Source: Gemmatimonadota bacterium (GTDB lineage: Bacteria > Latescibacterota > UBA2968 > UBA8231). From it: 15,073 bases of DNA. Position numbers and translations under genes: made by a program. Shown here one piece after another: positions 1-10,493 of the stretch. The notes under the pieces are model-generated. The model had not been told where the DNA came from, ran no database searches, and worked only from the letters and a program-made list of their open reading frames with translations. The stretch is from NCBI GenBank assembly GCA_038128265.1, contig JAYPJE010000079.1:1-15073 (forward strand), given 5' to 3'. The stretch's first letter is position 1. Every line of letters begins with the position of its first letter.

Positions 1-1116
1 AGCCGCGAAGAGGCGCTGCAGGCGGCCTGCGATCGCTTTTACGGTCGCCACGCCGAGCGCAACGATATCGCCGAGGAGTTGGAGGCGTTCTATATAGAGC
101 AGGGCGGCTTTCTGCGCCGCGAGGACTTGGCTGCCCATCGCACGCTGATAGAGGAGCCGGTCTCGGTCAACTACCGCGGCTACGATGTCTACAAATGCGG
201 TACCTGGACGCAGGGGCCCTACCTGTGCCAGGCGCTGCGCCTCTTAGAAGGATTCGACGTGCGCGCTCTGGGTCATTTTTCGGCCGACTACGTCCACCTA
301 GTCATCGAGGCAATCAAGCTGGCTATGGCCGATCGCGACGCCTACTACGGCGATCCAAATTTTGTCGACGTGCCGCTGGATGCGCTCTTCTCCGAAGAGT
401 ATAACGCGCTGCGGCGCGCGCTGATCGATATGGAGCGGGCGTCTGGCCAGACCCGCCCCGGCGATCCCTATGCGATGAAGGCGCTGCTCGAGGGGGGCTT
501 GCACCGCCAGCCGGATATCGGGGGCACGACCACCTGCACCATTGCCGATCGCTGGGGCAACGTAGTGGCGGCCACGCCGAGCGCCAACGTCTATCACGCC
601 GGCGGCAGTGGGTCGACGGGCGTCTCCTACGGCAACCGCCTGCGCAGCCTCAACACGACGCCGGGCCATCCCAACTGCATAGCGCCGGGCAAGCGGCCGC
701 GCATTACGCTGACGCCGACGCTGGTGTTGAAGGAGGGGCAGCCGCTGCTGGCCATCAGCGTGGCCGGCGGCGACCTGCAGGATCAGGCGACGCTCAATCT
801 CTTGCTCAACCACGTCGAATTTGGCCAACTGCCCGCCGAGGCGGTGGTGGCGCCGCGCTTTGCTACGGTGCACCACCAGGATTCCTTTGATCCCAATCCG
901 CGCCGCGAGGAAACCATCGGCGCGGTGGGATCGCTGTCGATCAGTGCGGCGATTCAAGAGGACGTGCGCACTCACTTGGCGCAGCGCGGCCATCAGCTCG
1001 ATGTGAAGGAGGGGGCCATTGCAAATCCGGTCATGCTGCACGTCGATCGGCAGAGCGGTCTGCTGCGTGCGGCCGGCGATCCGGCGGCCAAGCGCCACGC
1101 GGCGGGTTTGGATTAG
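1..1116 (+). CDS. ggt: Gamma-glutamyltransferase family protein (Ntn hydrolase), 5' end outside window
   Basis: The frame is open from base 1 (SREEALQAACDRFY...). Motifs: 'YRGYDVY', 'EAIKLAMADRDAYYGDP', small-subunit start 'GTTTCTIADRWGNVVAATPS', 'PGKRPRITLTP', 'GGDLQDQ'. Confidence 0.9.
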   Translation, partial: SREEALQAACDRFYGRHAERNDIAEELEAFYIEQGGFLRREDLAAHRTLIEEPVSVNYRGYDVYKCGTWTQGPYLCQALRLLEGFDVRALGHFSADYVHLVIEAIKLAMADRDAYYGDPNFVDVPLDALFSEEYNALRRALIDMERASGQTRPGDPYAMKALLEGGLHRQPDIGGTTTCTIADRWGNVVAATPSANVYHAGGSGSTGVSYGNRLRSLNTTPGHPNCIAPGKRPRITLTPTLVLKEGQPLLAISVAGGDLQDQATLNLLLNHVEFGQLPAEAVVAPRFATVHHQDSFDPNPRREETIGAVGSLSISAAIQEDVRTHLAQRGHQLDVKEGAIANPVMLHVDRQSGLLRAAGDPAAKRHAAGLD

Positions 1117-1186
1117 CGGCAAAAATTGTTTTTAATGAGGCGAGCACATGGCAGGTTGTGTTGCTCGTATGGGAAAGGAGATTTCT

Positions 1187-1891
1187 GTGAACGCTCTATA
1201 TGCGCTTGTTGGCATCGCCCTGTTGGCGACAGCCGGTTTGGCTCAGGAAGCAGGGCAAAGCGGCGGCGACTATCCCGATCCGGCGCGTTTTGAAGAAGCC
1301 GTACAGCAGTTTGAGGAAGAAGCCTCCAAGCAGCGCGTGCCGCGCAAAGCCATTGTATGCACCGGCTCTTCGAGTATGCGCGGCTGGCATGAAGATCTCT
1401 ACGATGACCTGGCGCCGCTGACGGTTATTTCGCGCGGTTTTGGCGGCAGCAATATGAACGACGTGCTGTTTTACGCCGATCGCATGATTCTGCCCTACAG
1501 GCCGCGCGCCGTCGTGCTCTACGAGGGCGACAACGACATTGCCCAGGGCATTGCGCCGGAAAAGATTCTCGAGACGTTTCGCGCCCTGCTCGAAAAGGTG
1601 CATGCCGAGCTGCCCAAGACGCGCTTTTACGTGCTGTCGATCAAGCCGAGTCCCAGTCGATGGCATATGTGGCCGCGCATGCAGCGGGCCAACGAGTTGC
1701 TGGCTCAGGCGTGTGCCCAAGACGGGCGGCTGACGTACGTAGACGTGGCCTCTGGCATGCTGGGCGAAGACGGCGAACCGCGCGGCGATATTTTCAAAGA
1801 GGACAAGCTGCACATGAACCGCAAGGGCTATGAGATTTGGCGCGACGCGCTGCGCTCAGTGATTATCAAGGCGGAGTGGCCGCACGAATGA
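1187..1891 (+). CDS. Secreted SGNH/GDSL hydrolase (GSSS-type block I)
   Basis: Blocks 'TGSSS', 'RGFGGS', 'YEGDND', 'DKLHMN'. Start placed at GTG 1187 after AAGGAG (1175-1180), giving a signal-peptide-like N-terminus (MNALYALVGIALLATAGLA-QE). Confidence 0.88.
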   Translation: MNALYALVGIALLATAGLAQEAGQSGGDYPDPARFEEAVQQFEEEASKQRVPRKAIVCTGSSSMRGWHEDLYDDLAPLTVISRGFGGSNMNDVLFYADRMILPYRPRAVVLYEGDNDIAQGIAPEKILETFRALLEKVHAELPKTRFYVLSIKPSPSRWHMWPRMQRANELLAQACAQDGRLTYVDVASGMLGEDGEPRGDIFKEDKLHMNRKGYEIWRDALRSVIIKAEWPHE

Positions 1892-2490
1892 GCAACCCGT
1901 GGGACGAACGCTATGCGAGCGAAGACTACGCCTTTGGAACGGAGCCCAACGACTTTCTGCGCGCAGAAGCTGGGCGGATTGCACGCGGAAACGTGCTGTG
2001 TATGGCCGATGGAGAAGGCCGCAACGGGGTTTATTTAGCCGGTTTGGGACATGCAGTCCTCTCGGTTGATCTCTCTTCAGTAGGTCTGCAAAAAGCCGAA
2101 AAGCTGGCTGCAGCGCGCGGCGTGCAGATCGAGACGCGCGTCGCCGACTTGGCCGAATGGCCTATTGAAGTCCAGCACTGGGACGGCATCGTTTCGATTT
2201 TTTGCCACATGCCTTCCACGACGCGGGCGCAATTACACCAGCGGGTCGTAGCCGGCCTTAAGCCGGGCGGTGTCTTTATCCTCGAAGCCTATACGCCCGA
2301 CCAGTTAGCGCACGACACGGGCGGACCTTCTACCATCGATTTGCTAATGAACTCAGCGGCGCTGGAAGCCGAACTGGCCGGGTTGGATCTGATGCATAAC
2401 GTGCAGTTGGAGCGCGATGTCGTGGAGGGTTCGTTTCACACGGGTCGGGCCGCCGTAGTGCAGGTGGTGGGCATCAAGCCGTCCGATTGA
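1888..2490 (+). CDS. Class I SAM-dependent methyltransferase (TehB-like)
   Basis: 'WDERY...YAFGTEPNDFL', motif I 'LCMADGEGRN', 'LKPGGVFILEAY'. The ATG overlaps the upstream stop (ATGA, 1888-1891), indicating translational coupling. Confidence 0.9.
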   Translation: MSNPWDERYASEDYAFGTEPNDFLRAEAGRIARGNVLCMADGEGRNGVYLAGLGHAVLSVDLSSVGLQKAEKLAAARGVQIETRVADLAEWPIEVQHWDGIVSIFCHMPSTTRAQLHQRVVAGLKPGGVFILEAYTPDQLAHDTGGPSTIDLLMNSAALEAELAGLDLMHNVQLERDVVEGSFHTGRAAVVQVVGIKPSD

Positions 2491-2494
2491 ACAC

Positions 2495-3862
2495 TTAGAT
2501 CTGGCGTTCTTTCCACTCGCCTTGTGCAAATTTTCGCGCCGTAAGCCAGCCCTGCAGCGCGCTAAAGGCGATGAGCGAAAACCACAATCCCTCGATATCG
2601 TAGCCGAGCCAGAAGGCCAGCGCATAGCCAACGGGTAGGCGCACGATCCATTGGCCGATAACCGTGTAGTAGAGCGCCGGCTTGGTATCGCCGGCTCCGC
2701 GCAGGCCGCCGCCGGCGGTAATGGCCATGCAGTGTAGCGGTTCGGCTAAAATAATAGCCCAAATGTAGACGGTGCCGACTTCAATGATGGCGGTGTCTTG
2801 GGTGAATATCCCCATGATTTCTTCGGCGAACAATGCCAGCGGCGCGCCGAAGAGTGCCATGCTGATGCTGCCGATAAAAATGGCTGTCCAGCCGCTGCGC
2901 TCTGCGCCTTCGCCGTCGCCTGCTCCCAGTCGCTGTCCGACCAGCGTGGTGGCTGCCGTGCCAAAGGATAGCGAGGTGCGGCGCACGATGCGCTCGACCT
3001 GATTGCCAATGGAGTAGGCTGCCACGGCAATGGTCGGTTGGGCCGTCAGCGCGACGAGTTTGACAAAGACGACGCCCGAGCCGTTGCGGAACAGTCCCTG
3101 GATGGCCGAGGGAATGCCGATGCGCAGCATGCGCTCGGCTCGTGCGCGTTCGGGCAGGAACGAGGTGTCGGGTAGAAAGCGCACCTTGAGGCGGTCGCTC
3201 TTGACCAGCACAATGGCCAGCGTGAAACCTGCGGCTCGGCTAAGCACGGTGGCCAGCGCCGCGCCGTTGACGCCGAGTGCGGGCAGCGGACCTGCGCCAA
3301 AGATCAGTAGGTAGCTCAGGGCGATTTTCAGCGCGCTCATAAAGAGGTTGAGGTAGAGCGGTGTGCGCGCGTCGCCGGCGCCGTAGAGACAGTTGTTGAG
3401 CGTGAAGTTGAGCGCCATAAAAGCGAGGCCGGCAAAGAATACGTGCAGGTAGCCCGTGCCCAATTCGACGACGCCGGCCGGCATGCTCAGTACTTCGAGC
3501 GCGATGCGCGAAAAGGCGATGCCCAGCAGGCTCAGCAGTGAGCTAATGGTGGCAACCAAGACGAGGGCCTGCTTGGTGGTGGCGCTGACGGTGCGCTCGT
3601 CGCCGGCTCCCGTGCCCTGTGCTACGAGTGCGAAGGCGCCGGTGGAGACGGCGATCATCACGACGCCGACGACCATGGTTAGGATTTGTGAGATGCCGAC
3701 CGCAGCAATGGCGTCGGCCCCGAGGTCGCCGACCAGGTAGATATCGGCTACGCCGACCAGCGTGTCTAACTGCGAAGAGAGGGCCACGGGCGTAGCTAGG
3801 GCGAAAATGGGTCGGATTAGCTGCCTATCGAGGCGGCCGGATGCAACGCGCCTAGTGTTGAT
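2495..3862 (-). CDS. MATE family efflux transporter
   Basis: About 12 hydrophobic helices in two repeats. Motifs 'ADIYLVGDLGADAIAAVG', 'GAGDARTPL', 'LGVNGAALATVLS', 'LRIGIP', 'LRGAGDTK'. Start uncertain: best SD (AAAGGGAG) precedes ATC at 3862; the ORF track extends to GTG 3976. Confidence 0.9.
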   Translation of the reverse strand: MNTRRVASGRLDRQLIRPIFALATPVALSSQLDTLVGVADIYLVGDLGADAIAAVGISQILTMVVGVVMIAVSTGAFALVAQGTGAGDERTVSATTKQALVLVATISSLLSLLGIAFSRIALEVLSMPAGVVELGTGYLHVFFAGLAFMALNFTLNNCLYGAGDARTPLYLNLFMSALKIALSYLLIFGAGPLPALGVNGAALATVLSRAAGFTLAIVLVKSDRLKVRFLPDTSFLPERARAERMLRIGIPSAIQGLFRNGSGVVFVKLVALTAQPTIAVAAYSIGNQVERIVRRTSLSFGTAATTLVGQRLGAGDGEGAERSGWTAIFIGSISMALFGAPLALFAEEIMGIFTQDTAIIEVGTVYIWAIILAEPLHCMAITAGGGLRGAGDTKPALYYTVIGQWIVRLPVGYALAFWLGYDIEGLWFSLIAFSALQGWLTARKFAQGEWKERQI

Positions 3863-6101: not shown

Positions 6102-7136
6102 ATGGCTAAGAGAGAAAAAGTGCGCGCAGTGCTGGTTGGTTGCGGTGGTATGAGCCGCGCCTGGCTTTCGGCGGCGAGCGAACGCAGCGATTTGGAAATT
6201 GTCGGTCTCGTCGACATCGATAAAAAAAATGCGCGCTGGCGTGCCGAAGAGTATCGCTTGGAAAACGCGGAGGTGGGCAGCGATCTCAAGGCCGTGCTGC
6301 GCGACGTACATCCCGACGTGGTATTCGACGTAACGGTGCCGTCAGCCCATACCGATGTTACCGTTACGGCGCTGCGCCACGGCTGCCACGTGCTGGGCGA
6401 AAAGCCGCTGGCCGATTCCATGGCCAACGCGCGGCGCTCGCTGCGCGCCGCCGCAAAAGCGGGTAAAATCTATGCCGTCATTCAGAACCGCCGCTACAAT
6501 CCCAACATTCGCCGCCTGCGCCGCCTGCTGGCCAAAAACCCCATCGGCCCATTGACGACGGTTAACTGCGACTTCTATATCGGTGCGCACTTCGGCGGGT
6601 TCCGCGATCGCATGGAGCACGTGCTGCTGCTCGATATGGCAATACACACCTTTGATCAGGCGCGCCTTATTACCGGAGCCGATCCCGTATCGGTTTACTG
6701 CCAAGAGTGGAATCCGGCCGGATCCTGGTACGATCACGACGCCTCGGCCATCTGCATTTTTGAGATGAGCGATGGGTTGGTCTTTACCTATCGCGGCAGC
6801 TGGTGTGCCGAGGGCCTCAATACGAGCTGGGAATGCGATTGGCGCATTGTTGGCACCAAGGGCAGCGCAACGTGGGACGGCGGTGAGGGCATCTGCGCGC
6901 AGGCAGTAAAAAAAGGCGGTGCGTTCCACGCGCAGATGCGCGACCTGCCGGTGCCGGCGCTGGCCGCCAAGGACCGCGTCGGTGGCCATGCTGGTCTGAT
7001 CGACGAGTTTGTAGACTGCGTGCGCCGTGGCCGCACGCCCGAGACGGTGTGCACGGACAATATCAAGAGTCTGGCCATGGTCTTTGCAGCCATCGAGAGC
7101 GCCAAAAGGGGGCGCAGGGTCGCGGTAAAATACTAG
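6102..7136 (+). CDS. Gfo/Idh/MocA family NAD(P)-dependent oxidoreductase
   Basis: Rossmann 'VLVGCGGMS', 'HVLGEKPLA', 'QNRRY', 'LLDMAIHTFD'. Start is ATG 6102 (or 6096) after AAGGAAGGA. Confidence 0.92.
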   Translation: MAKREKVRAVLVGCGGMSRAWLSAASERSDLEIVGLVDIDKKNARWRAEEYRLENAEVGSDLKAVLRDVHPDVVFDVTVPSAHTDVTVTALRHGCHVLGEKPLADSMANARRSLRAAAKAGKIYAVIQNRRYNPNIRRLRRLLAKNPIGPLTTVNCDFYIGAHFGGFRDRMEHVLLLDMAIHTFDQARLITGADPVSVYCQEWNPAGSWYDHDASAICIFEMSDGLVFTYRGSWCAEGLNTSWECDWRIVGTKGSATWDGGEGICAQAVKKGGAFHAQMRDLPVPALAAKDRVGGHAGLIDEFVDCVRRGRTPETVCTDNIKSLAMVFAAIESAKRGRRVAVKY

Positions 7137-7152
7137 CGCACAGGCGTGGTGC

Positions 7153-8163
7153 TCAGCCGACTTGGACGCCCTGTACCTCGAAGACTTCACGGAGAAAGTG
7201 TTCGCCCATGAGGCGGTAGCCCTCGGCGTTGGGATGTAGATTGTCCGGCAGCAGGTGGGCCAGGTCTTCGCCGAAGAGCTTTAGGCCATCGACGTAGTAG
7301 ATGTGCGCATCGCCGCGCCGCCGGAACGACTCGACGGCTTCCTGAACTTCAATGCGCATTTGCCGCAGCGTCAGTCCAACGGCGTTGGGGGCGTCTTCGC
7401 GATCGTGCCCCCAGATGGGCGAGCAGACGGCAAAGGGCGTGTCGGGATGGCCGTCGCGGATGGTGGCAATGGTGCCGATAATGGCCGGTCTAAAGGTGCG
7501 TGGTCCCAGGCTAGATCCGCCGTAGATATTGATGCCAATTTTGACGGATAAAAAGTCGGCTGGCCGGTCGCGGATCAGGCGGGCCATCATGGGATCGGCG
7601 TGGCACTGGCCGCCAAAGCCAAACGACGTCAGGTTGAAATCCATGCCGCGCGCGACCACGCCTGGCCAGGTAAACGAGGGCGAACCGGCCGTGCGGCAGT
7701 GGGTGATAGACGAGCCGTAGGTGACCCATTTGCGTCGATGGTCTTCGCACTTTTCCAGCGTGCTACCCTCGGGAAGTTCGATGGCGCGCACGGCCACCGG
7801 CATGGCCTGAGAGAGCCAGAGTTCGAGCGCGTTGTCGCCGTCTGGCAGGTTGGTAAACTCCGTGGCGGTCTGACCGGCGGCAAAGTCGATGGTCGCGACT
7901 AGATCGCCGTTGGCGTAGAGGTCGAAGTTGCCCTCTTCAGCAAGCGGCTCGGTGTGCAGCGTGAGGGCTGTGGCATCGCTGGCAAAGCGCAGGCGCACGC
8001 CGGAAGCCATTTCGGCGCGTCCGGCCAGTTCGCTGACGCCGGGTGAGTAGAGGTCTTGGTCTTCGTGGGGAATGCGCCAGGGCTTGATCCATCCTGCGCC
8101 CCGTTCGAGCGAGGCAATGCCGCCCCAGCACAGGCGCGGATCGTCGGCGGGTATGGTGGGCAT
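7153..8163 (-). CDS. SGNH/GDSL hydrolase with N-terminal beta-sandwich domain (SsfX3-like architecture)
   Basis: 'ASGVRLRF', block I 'YGSSITH', 'FGFGGQC', 'IGINI', 'DNLHPNAEGY'. SD AAAGGA upstream of the ATG. No signal peptide. Confidence 0.88.
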   Translation of the reverse strand: MPTIPADDPRLCWGGIASLERGAGWIKPWRIPHEDQDLYSPGVSELAGRAEMASGVRLRFASDATALTLHTEPLAEEGNFDLYANGDLVATIDFAAGQTATEFTNLPDGDNALELWLSQAMPVAVRAIELPEGSTLEKCEDHRRKWVTYGSSITHCRTAGSPSFTWPGVVARGMDFNLTSFGFGGQCHADPMMARLIRDRPADFLSVKIGINIYGGSSLGPRTFRPAIIGTIATIRDGHPDTPFAVCSPIWGHDREDAPNAVGLTLRQMRIEVQEAVESFRRRGDAHIYYVDGLKLFGEDLAHLLPDNLHPNAEGYRLMGEHFLREVFEVQGVQVG

Positions 8164-8212
8164 GGTGTGTGTCCTTTAGCTGCCGTTAGCGGGTTGTAGT
8201 GGGTAGGCCGCT

Positions 8213-8241
8213 AATCTAACGCGCCGGCGCGCGCCTGTCAT
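8213..8241 (-). promoter_or_regulatory. Sigma70-type promoter for the SGNH gene at 8163
   Basis: Minus strand ATGACA (8241-8236), exactly 17 nt, TAGATT (8218-8213). The same -10 hexamer occurs in the TTGACA promoter at 12195-12222. Confidence 0.55.
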
Positions 8242-8510
8242 ATGGCCCCCTGAACGGAGTGGAGCCCCGACCAAACGAGGTCGGGGCTCCATCCTGGGGC
8301 AACGCGGTAATGGACTTCAGCCCGCGTTAAAAGAGCGGGGGTTGCTGCCGGAACGCTGCCACTTCGAAGCCGCGTCCGCTCTGCGCTCGCCGCGTGCCAA
8401 CGGCATGCGGATGCTGCGACCCCGCTGTCACTGGGGCCATGGCAGAAACGGGGCTATCGCGCGCGAAAGCGGAAGCGAGGCGCTCCGATTAGAAAGCGCA
8501 AACCCCCTAT
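8242..8510 (-). ncRNA. Putative ~270-nt structured non-coding RNA, family unassigned
   Basis: Starts just downstream of an exact sigma28 promoter. Manually found helices: a three-way junction (8450-8507), a long-range closing stem (8433-8440 with 8242-8249), and hairpins at 8260-8291, 8301-8328, 8349-8378 and 8390-8410. No ORF with an SD. Confidence 0.6.
8260..8291. repeat. Perfect 13-bp inverted repeat with 6-nt loop
   Basis: TGGAGCCCCGACC-aaacga-GGTCGGGGCTCCA. No U-tract on either side. Confidence 0.9.
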
Positions 8511-8517
8511 TCAAACT

Positions 8518-8544
8518 ATATCGGCATTTTCATTAGCAACTTTA
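8518..8544 (-). promoter_or_regulatory. Sigma28 (FliA/SigD/WhiG-class) promoter
   Basis: Minus strand TAAA-gttgctaatgaaaat (15 nt)-GCCGATAT, matching the TAAA-N15-GCCGATA(A/T) consensus. The extended -35 TAAAGTTG matches 7 of 8 positions of TAAAGTTT. Confidence 0.8.
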
Positions 8545-8549
8545 ATGGC

Positions 8550-8606
8550 TTTGAAATAAAATAACATAAGTGTATTATTTACAATATTTTATAATATATT
8601 TAATTT
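8550..8606. promoter_or_regulatory. AT-rich tract upstream of the sigma28 promoter (UP element or nucleoid-protein binding region)
   Basis: Only 5 G/C in 57 nt in an otherwise GC-rich window, immediately upstream of the -35 box. Confidence 0.55.
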
Positions 8607-8624
8607 GTGTCGAAACCGGTCGTT

Positions 8625-9764
8625 TTATGGCAGCGAGATGCCTTTCCATGCGCAAATGCCCTCTAACAGACCGGCACCGAGGCGGCGATACGCCTCGCGA
8701 GTGAAGACGGTGTCCCCGCTGGCGGCATAGGGTATTTCTAACGTAAGACAGGGAATCTGCCACATGTCCCAAGCGTAGTTGTCGAGGGTGGCCTCCCCAT
8801 CCCAGCGCGACGGATAGTCCGGCTGGCGCAGCAGGTCGGCGTGGACGAGTTCGGTCGGCAGTGAGGGAGCGATGGCTTCGATCGCTTGGCGCGCCGCCTG
8901 CAACTGCAGTTCGGGTCGGCCCGCGCGCGGCAGAAAAAAGTAGGCGCCATCGGCTTCGCCCGGTCCCGGCGCGTGCAGGTCGAGCGCGAGGGTTGGAGTG
9001 CAGCGCTGATGCCAGCGCTGCATATCGCTCTGCACGACGCGGACTTCGTGGCGCATGGGCGGCGTGCTCCAAGCGCGGTTTAGGTCCCAGGGAAAGGGGT
9101 CTTTGCCATAATCGCCCTCTACCACGCCGTCCAAATGGGCTAGGGGCGTAGTCCATATTAGCAGCTGTGCGGGATCGAGGGCCTGTGCGGCGCGGCGCAG
9201 CAGGCCGTCGAGCACCCACGAGCCCGGCATCTCGCCGGCGTGCTGCCGCGCGATGGCGTAGAGACCCGGAACGCCGTCGCCTCGATAGCTATTGGCGAGG
9301 CGCGGCAGGGGGTTGCCTCGGCTTGTGACGCCGATGGGATCGAGTTCCCAATAGCTGCCGCAGGCGCTGCGCGTCATCTCCAAATCGCCCAGCGCGTAGG
9401 GATAGCAGAAAGCTACTTCAAACGCGTCATAGCTTGGCTCGATGCGCCAGACGACCTGATGGCGCCCGTCGTCTAGGGTTTCTACTGTACCCGCTGCAAG
9501 GCGCTCCCAGGTGGCGCCGGCCTGGCGCCATACGGGCCGTGTGCGCTGCCAATTATGCGCACCGCCCAAACAGGAGTCGACGTTGGTCAGCACGAGGTCG
9601 ACGGGGCGCTGGGAGCACTCGACGACGCGGAAGTAAAACCACAGCGCCTCGGTGCCGCCGTGCGGATCGGCGGCGAAATGGACGATGTCGCGCTCGGCCG
9701 TGGAGCGGATATCTACGGCACAGGCGTTGCCGCCGGGAAATTGAGTTTGCACGTGTAGCGACAT
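8625..9764 (-). CDS. M14 family zinc carboxypeptidase (Nna1/CCP-like)
   Basis: N-terminal 'FPGGN' and 'WFYF', 'AFCYPY', Zn ligands 'ARQHAGE' and 'LDLH', 'DLNR', catalytic 'LTLE'. Start set at ATG 9764 after GAGGGA; the longer ORF-track extension overlaps mnmD. Confidence 0.88.
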   Translation of the reverse strand: MSLHVQTQFPGGNACAVDIRSTAERDIVHFAADPHGGTEALWFYFRVVECSQRPVDLVLTNVDSCLGGAHNWQRTRPVWRQAGATWERLAAGTVETLDDGRHQVVWRIEPSYDAFEVAFCYPYALGDLEMTRSACGSYWELDPIGVTSRGNPLPRLANSYRGDGVPGLYAIARQHAGEMPGSWVLDGLLRRAAQALDPAQLLIWTTPLAHLDGVVEGDYGKDPFPWDLNRAWSTPPMRHEVRVVQSDMQRWHQRCTPTLALDLHAPGPGEADGAYFFLPRAGRPELQLQAARQAIEAIAPSLPTELVHADLLRQPDYPSRWDGEATLDNYAWDMWQIPCLTLEIPYAASGDTVFTREAYRRLGAGLLEGICAWKGISLP

Positions 9765-9836
9765 GGGCGTTTCCCTCGTGAATAATAGCTCTAACAAGAA
9801 CGCCAATTGATGCGCGCATGCCAAAGAGAGGATTGC

Positions 9837-10493
9837 ATGGATATCGTCGAAACGGCCGACGGCTCGCATACGCTCGCCTCGCCTTACCCGGGCGAGCACT
9901 ACCACTCGACGCACGGTGCGCTGTGCGAAGGCCAGCACGTATTTGTGCGCCACGGCGTGGCCGATCTCGGACCGCGCGCGCGCATCGGCGTGCTCGAAAT
10001 GGGGTTTGGCACGGGGCTTAACGCCCTGCTGACGCGGCTGTTTGCCCAGCAACATCGGCAGCCGATCGACTACGTGGCCATTGAAGCCAAACCGTTGGAT
10101 GCAGCGCTCGTCGCGCAGCTCAACTATCCGCAGATCATTGAGGAAGCCGGCGCGCGCTTCGCCGAGCTACACGATCTCGCATGGGGCTTGAATGCTCGCT
10201 TAGACGCGTTTTTTTCGCTGAAAAAAGTGCATGTGCGCATCGAAGAAGCCGATTTAAGTGAGCGCTTTGACGTGGTGTATTACGACGCCTTTGGTCCGGC
10301 CTATCAGCCGGAGCTGTGGACACGAGAAGCCTTTGCGCGCATGTACAAAGTGCTCGTTCCCGGAGGTGTTTTGGTTACCTACTGCGCCAAGGGGCAGGTC
10401 AAACGCGATCTGCGCGCGGTGGGCTTTGCGGTGGAGAGCCTGCCGGGACCACCCGGTAAGCGCGAGATGACGCGTGCGCGAAAGGGAGCATAG
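9837..10493 (+). CDS. mnmD: tRNA (5-methylaminomethyl-2-thiouridine)(34)-methyltransferase MnmD (stand-alone MnmC methyltransferase domain)
   Basis: 'TADGSHTL', 'EHYHSTHGA', 'LEMGFGTGLN', 'YYDAFGP...PELWT', 'TYCAKG', 'PGPPGKREM'. SD GAGAGGA upstream of ATG 9837. Confidence 0.88.
   Translation: MDIVETADGSHTLASPYPGEHYHSTHGALCEGQHVFVRHGVADLGPRARIGVLEMGFGTGLNALLTRLFAQQHRQPIDYVAIEAKPLDAALVAQLNYPQIIEEAGARFAELHDLAWGLNARLDAFFSLKKVHVRIEEADLSERFDVVYYDAFGPAYQPELWTREAFARMYKVLVPGGVLVTYCAKGQVKRDLRAVGFAVESLPGPPGKREMTRARKGA

Follow-up and report, generated by a model that had tools for sequence, protein, structure and literature searches.

A stretch of DNA of 15,073 nucleotides from an uncultured Latescibacterota bacterium (here called the window) carries, between two protein-coding genes, a sigma28 (FliA) promoter behind which no reading frame survives. 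What does this promoter transcribe, and where did the transcribed unit come from? The first-pass annotation had read the region as a stand-alone non-coding RNA folded into two large domains and ending at position 8242. We found that a stand-alone, sigma28-driven non-coding unit without an Rfam family and separate from the downstream gene stands, whereas a large conserved two-domain RNA ending at 8242 does not. The best reading is a unit of approximately 260 nt, from about 8512 to 8252 on the minus strand, with its 3′ module as the working part. On balance we consider it a sigma28-dependent small RNA, probably descended from an mRNA that once encoded a secreted protein with a cohesin fold.

A conserved sigma28 promoter and leader

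The promoter occupies 8519..8544 (minus), with the -35 element TAAAGT at 8544-8539 and the -10 element TGCCGATA at 8526-8519. As had been noted, it matches TAAA-N15-GCCGATA exactly (8544-8519); it is the sole match in the window, and shuffled sequences gave none (0/200). The box was expected to be conserved in relatives, and all 14 of its positions are indeed invariant in the six species of the window's genus. The promoter is identical in kind at all 11 loci that carry the unit. Its consensus is also found upstream of four of the nine flagellin-domain genes of the window's genome, in a search that used 15-16 nt spacing within 400 nt (expected ~0.0014 per 400 nt). The AT-rich, UP-element-like tract upstream of the promoter (8545..8624, minus) has retained its composition and not its sequence, with 8 of 80 sites invariant in the six species.

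Judged by the promoter, transcription would start near 8512. The leader that includes this putative start, GAATAGGGGG (8503..8512, minus), is the Shine-Dalgarno sequence of the ancestral gene described below and precedes an ATG in locus L026. Every one of its nine sites is invariant in the six species, the shared form being GAATAGG(G/A)GG, and it can pair with CCCCC at 8341-8337 (pairing probability 0.64; 78% of cells paired). The separate sigma70-like promoter that had been proposed for the next gene is present outside the RNA (8213..8241, minus), with similar hexamers in L002-L006; it gives the downstream gene a conserved site of its own.

Homologues in two genera of one family

A DNA search of 61 genomes detected the unit in five of the seven other genomes of the window's genus (g1) and partly in a second genus of the family (g14). 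With a covariance model of the 3′ end we obtained one strong copy each in 11 of 76 family genomes, six from g1 and five from g14; the model was built with ten of these 11 carriers, G094 not being among them. The promoter pattern matched ten metagenome contigs, nine of which contain the 3′ motif while the tenth ends within it. Promoter, leader, the 3′ motif GGRCTGRAGTCCAT...CCC and a terminator-type hairpin are common to the homologues. Weaker covariance-model matches occurred at 17 places in other genomes (≤29.4 bits), and the four best, on inspection, were mainly terminator hairpins. Of three promoter-pattern matches nominally outside the lineage, L024 and L027 are without the 3′ motif and L028 is the same sequence as L005. 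The unit is absent from G003 and G007, which are FliA-positive species of the window's genus.

No Rfam family matched the region (best E 1.3). That signatures of tmRNA, RNase P RNA, SRP RNA and common riboswitches had not been noticed agrees with the lack of any covariance-model match at gathering score and with ARAGORN, which found nothing there; eight homologous loci scanned against Rfam gave nothing at gathering score either. One match to BjrC68, in L006 only (25.3 of 39 bits), was the terminator. ARAGORN also found no tmRNA in the 84%-complete genome G000.

Two flanking genes served as synteny markers: an M14-type carboxypeptidase-like gene upstream (8625..9764, minus) and an SsfX3_N plus GDSL lipase gene downstream (7153..8163, minus). 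The M14-like open reading frame extends over 8625-10055 of the window, and its start is probably 9764 (MSLHVQ...), where the homologues begin, not 10055. An M14 peptidase gene lies upstream of the unit in nine of the 11 loci, and the GDSL gene lies downstream in the six g1 genomes and in G103. In G004 and G006 the M14 gene is gone and the unit is kept; G016, which has no FliA, possesses the M14 gene with no unit behind it.

Conserved structure at the 3′ end

The helices of the two-domain model can be found in the sequence: the six strands that were checked (GGGGUU/AGCCCC, GCGCUUU/GGAGCGC and AUGGCCCC/GGGGCCAU) are where they had been placed, and a perfect 13-bp stem exists at 8291-8260. Their assembly into domains fared poorly. 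Helices of the three-way junction in domain 1 had pair probabilities of 0.01-0.08, and the two of them were 62% and 71% paired across ten g1 homologues, showing no covariation signal above shuffled controls (76/500 and 84/500 reached the same level). The helix said to close domain 2 had a pair probability of 0.26-0.36, and its 3′ strand (8249-8242) is missing in all five other species of the genus; this strand lies past the terminator hairpin, and the likely end of the structure is about 8252. When imposed as a constraint on the window sequence alone, the model lay just 3.5 kcal/mol above the minimum.

The region does fold better than shuffled controls, as had been anticipated (z -4.18 for 8235-8515). 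The bulk of this score stems from the 3′ end: z was -3.90 for the whole unit versus -1.16 once the 3′ module and the terminator had been removed. Six other helices, picked by eye from the same sequences, formed a set that was 89.9% paired with seven pairs changed on both sides, three of those seven in the terminator; in g1, a 7-bp stem outcompetes the small GGGC/GUCC hairpin of this set. The firm structural elements are that stem (8328-8322 paired to 8307-8301) and the hairpin of the terminator. Of the earlier fold, only the last two hairpins are conserved.

The 3′ module comprises 44 nt (8287..8330, minus), made up of the stem, a 14-nt loop (8321-8308) and adjoining sequence. Its boundaries were set after viewing the alignment, and within them 36 of 44 sites are invariant in the six g1 species. 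Stem probability was 0.87-1.00. The stem changes from A-U to U-A in L005/L077, the one two-sided change in it, and from A-U to G-U in L003. The module by itself was not unusually stable (z -1.2 to +1.3). Its loop is the most conserved sequence over both genera, and the module includes the ancestral TGA stop (8319-8317, positioned from L026 and P0002-P0005) within a conserved GGRC-TGA-AGTCC motif, which is altered in G094.

Downstream lies the terminator-type hairpin (8252..8291, minus; 13 bp, 8291-8260), in which three of nine pairs show two-sided changes. The window's species and G001 have a weak U tract after it, L003, L004 and L006 a clearer one, and a strict terminator scan does not call the hairpin. 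The RNA would most likely end after it, near 8252. On the opposite strand, the reverse complement of the module (8298-8332, plus) reads GGGG, ten bases and then a frame of 6 codons; this plus-strand frame has 6-7 codons in five of six g1 species and 13-69 elsewhere.

Probable origin from a gene for a secreted protein

We regard the unit as orthologous to a gene that is driven by sigma28 and encodes a secreted cohesin-fold protein of ~210 amino acids. The locus is considered orthologous because the order M14 peptidase - unit - GDSL is common to the near-intact gene of G103. In this genome (L026) the same promoter and leader are followed by an ATG and a frame of ~205 codons with one frameshift, which ends SWGAIKTRYAAD and has its TGA within the conserved motif. 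Full-length products of 206-211 amino acids are on record, several per cluster. The parent protein was modeled from 28 aligned sequences with a pLDDT of 82.8 (an earlier model from 4 sequences, with a pLDDT of 42.5, was too poor for use), and it is predicted to fold as a cohesin: Foldseek aligned the model with cohesin modules (PDB 6kgf, 2b59, 1g1k and others) at E-values down to 7e-7 and TM scores of ~0.5-0.58 by query. Identity to these modules is ~10%, and the parent protein differs from them in having no match in Pfam, a signal peptide, and a tail of the WGxIK type at its C terminus.

The elements conserved while the coding part was lost are those of the parent gene: its promoter and leader, the region of the stop codon, the 3′ UTR and the terminator. 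The 3′ end of the unit (stop, UTR and terminator) is homologous to that of the parent gene. The eroded coding sequence (8331..8502, minus) holds two hairpins (8445-8425 and 8405-8395) with limited covariation and no surviving frame, and no frame survives in any of the six species of the window's genus. Homology of the body to the parent coding sequence is strong in G031 and G094 and marginal in the window's genus. A faint trace of the C-terminal LEVSAFR remains in the window at ~8389-8339 (1/200 shuffles), a segment that G031 has lost. Over the six g1 species, coding traces were equaled by 1, 2, 4, 42, 9 and 184 of 200 shuffles, and profile E-values were ~1-2. Because these traces are marginal, descent in the window's genus is argued mainly from flanks and synteny.

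Several stages of decay were observed in g14. The copy in G020 has many frameshifts and stops, identical in a second assembly; a deletion in G031 leaves residues 1-47 and 188-206; G094 has a different deletion; and in G106, the most diverged g14 genome, the middle is unrecognizable and both ends are kept. One protein record (P0006) jumps from residue 68 into the 3′ UTR. In a tree of the M14 neighbor, a single gene that does not settle the order within g14, the five g14 genomes form one clade (99/98) with near-intact G103 inside and g1 outside. Since this clade holds G103 and excludes g1, the g1 and g14 cases lost the frame separately. These data suggest that the small RNA probably descended from a secreted-protein gene that lost its coding sequence and kept its promoter, start and tail.

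Short frames and frameshifts were seen at several of these loci. In G094 (L081) the start codon and the C-terminal tail still share one frame after the deletion, giving ~49 codons, N bases included, and a frame of 25-28 codons lies behind the leader in G106 (L022/L078). Three distinct frameshifts in L026, L025 and L150 cluster at roughly one position of the protein, in its GPG-K-x-R-x-R-SG segment, a clustering that may reflect a hotspot or coincidence. The paralogue at L150:1415-2190 (G011), which is not syntenic, has a sigma28 promoter and ATA at the position of the start codon; it is frameshifted and matches the 3′ module faintly (16.7 bits). A second locus may here be decaying in the same way.

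Association with FliA and a hint of expression

FliA is encoded in the window's genome, in 34 of 76 family genomes, and in 10 of the 11 unit carriers, the exception being 58% complete. The parent protein family occurs in 32 of 76 genomes, 31 of which have FliA. Short paralogues with the same promoter occur in three other genera (L132, L137 and L150). Within g14 the FliA link may reflect kinship, because the M14 neighbor has the same five-genome range as the unit and the five genomes are one clade. The tracking of FliA by this cohesin-fold family (31/32 carriers; for example, G000:C49:756-5048 and G000:C2:24984-25664) is family-wide. Members occur either as short secreted proteins that bear a WxxIK/LK tail or as the N-terminal domain in Ig-repeat proteins of ~1430 amino acids, and the family is possibly a motility-linked surface system.

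Two metatranscriptome runs, from two studies of the same year and habitat that are perhaps one campaign, each contained one contig inside the unit. These contigs, of 152-154 nt, are each 98% identical to the window (3 letters differ) and span 8343 or 8341 to 8494, both stopping at 8494; stretches without RNA-contig cover are uninformative. The other contigs of those runs on 7000-9600 (4/5 and 3/4) were less than 90% alike. A contig of run X3, whose library type is not on record, crosses the promoter. We take this as a weak hint that the unit is transcribed, because the runs were chosen with this region, the contigs are strandless and DNA was possibly present.

Proposed action and competing explanations

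In the mechanism we propose, FliA-RNA polymerase would initiate near 8512 late in flagellar assembly and stop near 8252. The 3′ stem would then display the exposed 14-nt loop, which may, independently of Hfq, pair with at least one mRNA and so tune motility-linked expression. Pairing with mRNA is slightly favored over protein binding, by analogy to known sigma28 small RNAs (PMC10578931, PMC11187230). Target tests, all of low power, were negative. In a scan for duplexes with start regions only, based on crude gene calls and with no accessibility term, the best was no better than for shuffled modules and flagellar genes ranked 491-3494 of 3624. The three exact genomic complements of 12-13 nt were all antisense to coding genes; a candidate at the start of accA proved to be the reverse strand of a cyclase-like gene, accA being elsewhere. 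An 11-nt complement was not conserved, since neither G001 nor G094 has one beyond the unit.

One possibility, which we rate as a serious though less probable competitor, is that the RNA and its origin are as described and that the 3′ module is a protein-binding site, making the RNA a decoy or scaffold. The missing target signal would suit this, as would the fact that, within the genus, the stem varies as little as the loop. Hfq was not found in the window's genome, which is 84% complete, and CsrA is present, with csrA in the flagellar cluster at C2:108632. The g14 motif can also fold into a tetraloop hairpin, GGRC-UGAA-GUCC, with a probability of 0.15-0.80 in five loci; however, it is predicted neither in the window's genus (0.01) nor in G094. 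A sponge of the CsrB/RsmZ type is unlikely because there is no conserved array of GGA in loops: each unit has 3-5 GGA and 0-2 ANGGA, at positions that are not conserved. Separately, the ribosome-binding sites of flagellin genes in G000 (C2:119215, C2:117641, C2:120701, C4:95593 and C2:144154) share (A)CAAGGAGGTT, which, with the position of csrA, suggests that CsrA may control flagellin translation.

An unlikely explanation is that the sigma28 promoter drives the GDSL gene by read-through or by attenuation at a leaky terminator, the RNA being a cis-acting leader. The GDSL gene does follow in the same direction in all six g1 carriers, and both the window's species and G001 have a weak U tract. 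On the other hand, the next gene is convergent in four g14 genomes, of which G106 nonetheless retains promoter and module. The GDSL gene is preceded by a sigma70-like site of its own, and in G003 and G007 it occurs with no unit beside it.

Still less probable is a functionless pseudogene remnant whose promoter and terminator have simply not decayed so far. This would suit the young g14 cases G020 and G031, whose neighbor proteins are 95% alike, and it would be in line with the dispensability of the unit in G003 and G007 and with the persistence of a paralogous gene in the window's genome. For the window's genus it is largely refuted by the contrast in conservation. Four-fold sites there are 48-78% identical between species, with 17 of 53 columns of the GDSL gene invariant in the six species, and the middle of the unit is scrambled (24 of 173 sites invariant); yet promoter boxes and leader are invariant at 23 of 23 sites, as is most of the module. 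Fisher tests against the four-fold sites gave p values of 3e-6 (boxes) and 1e-6 (module), which overstate the difference because the module was defined afterwards (the boxes beforehand) and the species are related.

A gene for a small peptide is very improbable. The invariant Shine-Dalgarno-like leader and the short frames behind it in G094 and G106 would fit one, as would the antisense frame of most g1 species, but no sense-strand frame is common to g1, the antisense frame varies from 6 to 69 codons over the 11 loci, and no plus-strand promoter was found. Least credible of all is a divergent 6S or other housekeeping RNA: Rfam 6S matches number 0 in the 76 family genomes, leaving that slot open, and a rod closed by GGGGG/CCCCC can form from the 5′ part, but only 11 of 76 genomes carry the unit, the conserved sequence is found outside that rod, G103 has a protein gene in the rod's place, and neither the window nor the eight homologous loci matched RF00013 or another Rfam model above gathering score.

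Relation to known small RNAs

The route of formation that we favor, from an eroded mRNA to a small RNA, is known from OxyS and other small RNAs eroded from protein genes; the family itself is not in Rfam. OxyS was left by erosion of a protein gene and stays in the regulon of its parent (Krieger et al., bioRxiv 10.1101/2021.10.18.464853). On that description, the unit resembles OxyS in sitting where relatives have a protein gene, in keeping the parent's promoter control and in being built from the end of a coding sequence, a 3′ UTR and a terminator. It differs in sequence, regulon and phylum, in the failure to find Hfq, and in keeping the 5′ leader and ~170 nt of eroded middle; its regulatory role is putative. 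Several decay stages with differing breakpoints are seen at one locus, and this repeated, staged loss of coding sequence is the distinctive feature.

Two sets of flagellar small RNAs offer further comparisons. The sigma28-dependent UhpU, MotR, FliX and FlgO of E. coli are Hfq-binding RNAs derived from the UTRs of genes that are themselves intact (Melamed et al., PMC10578931). The unit is like them in its promoter consensus, UTR origin, strong 3′ stem-loop and a size near that of UhpU (~260 nt), and unlike them in that its parent gene is eroded, no sequence similarity was detected and its FliA dependence is inferred. Like the window's genome, in which Hfq was not found, that of Campylobacter jejuni is not known to encode it. 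FlmR (CJnc170) and FlmE (CJnc230) of Campylobacter jejuni likewise belong to the flagellar regulon, FlmR being FliA-dependent (PMC11187230); no sequence relationship to them was seen, and the abstract of that report states no eroded-gene origin for them.

A broader reading, to which we give somewhat less than an even chance, is that the mRNA once had a dual function and its 3′ RNA module came to outweigh the protein. The coding sequence would have been lost repeatedly in parallel, at a minimum in the window's genus, in G094, in G106 and in the pair G020/G031, with promoter, leader and module retained, yielding an unlisted flagellar-regulon RNA family that now acts without Hfq in an uncultured phylum.

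We found no paper pairing Latescibacterota with small or noncoding RNA. The origins of bacterial small RNAs are usually inferred from end points; here one locus exists in intact, frameshifted, deleted and fully eroded states, and each stage of the route from mRNA to small RNA can therefore be put to the test, as can the question of whether the 3′ end regulates while the protein is still made. The unit would be a first candidate regulatory RNA for motility in Latescibacterota, in a genome in which no Hfq was found.
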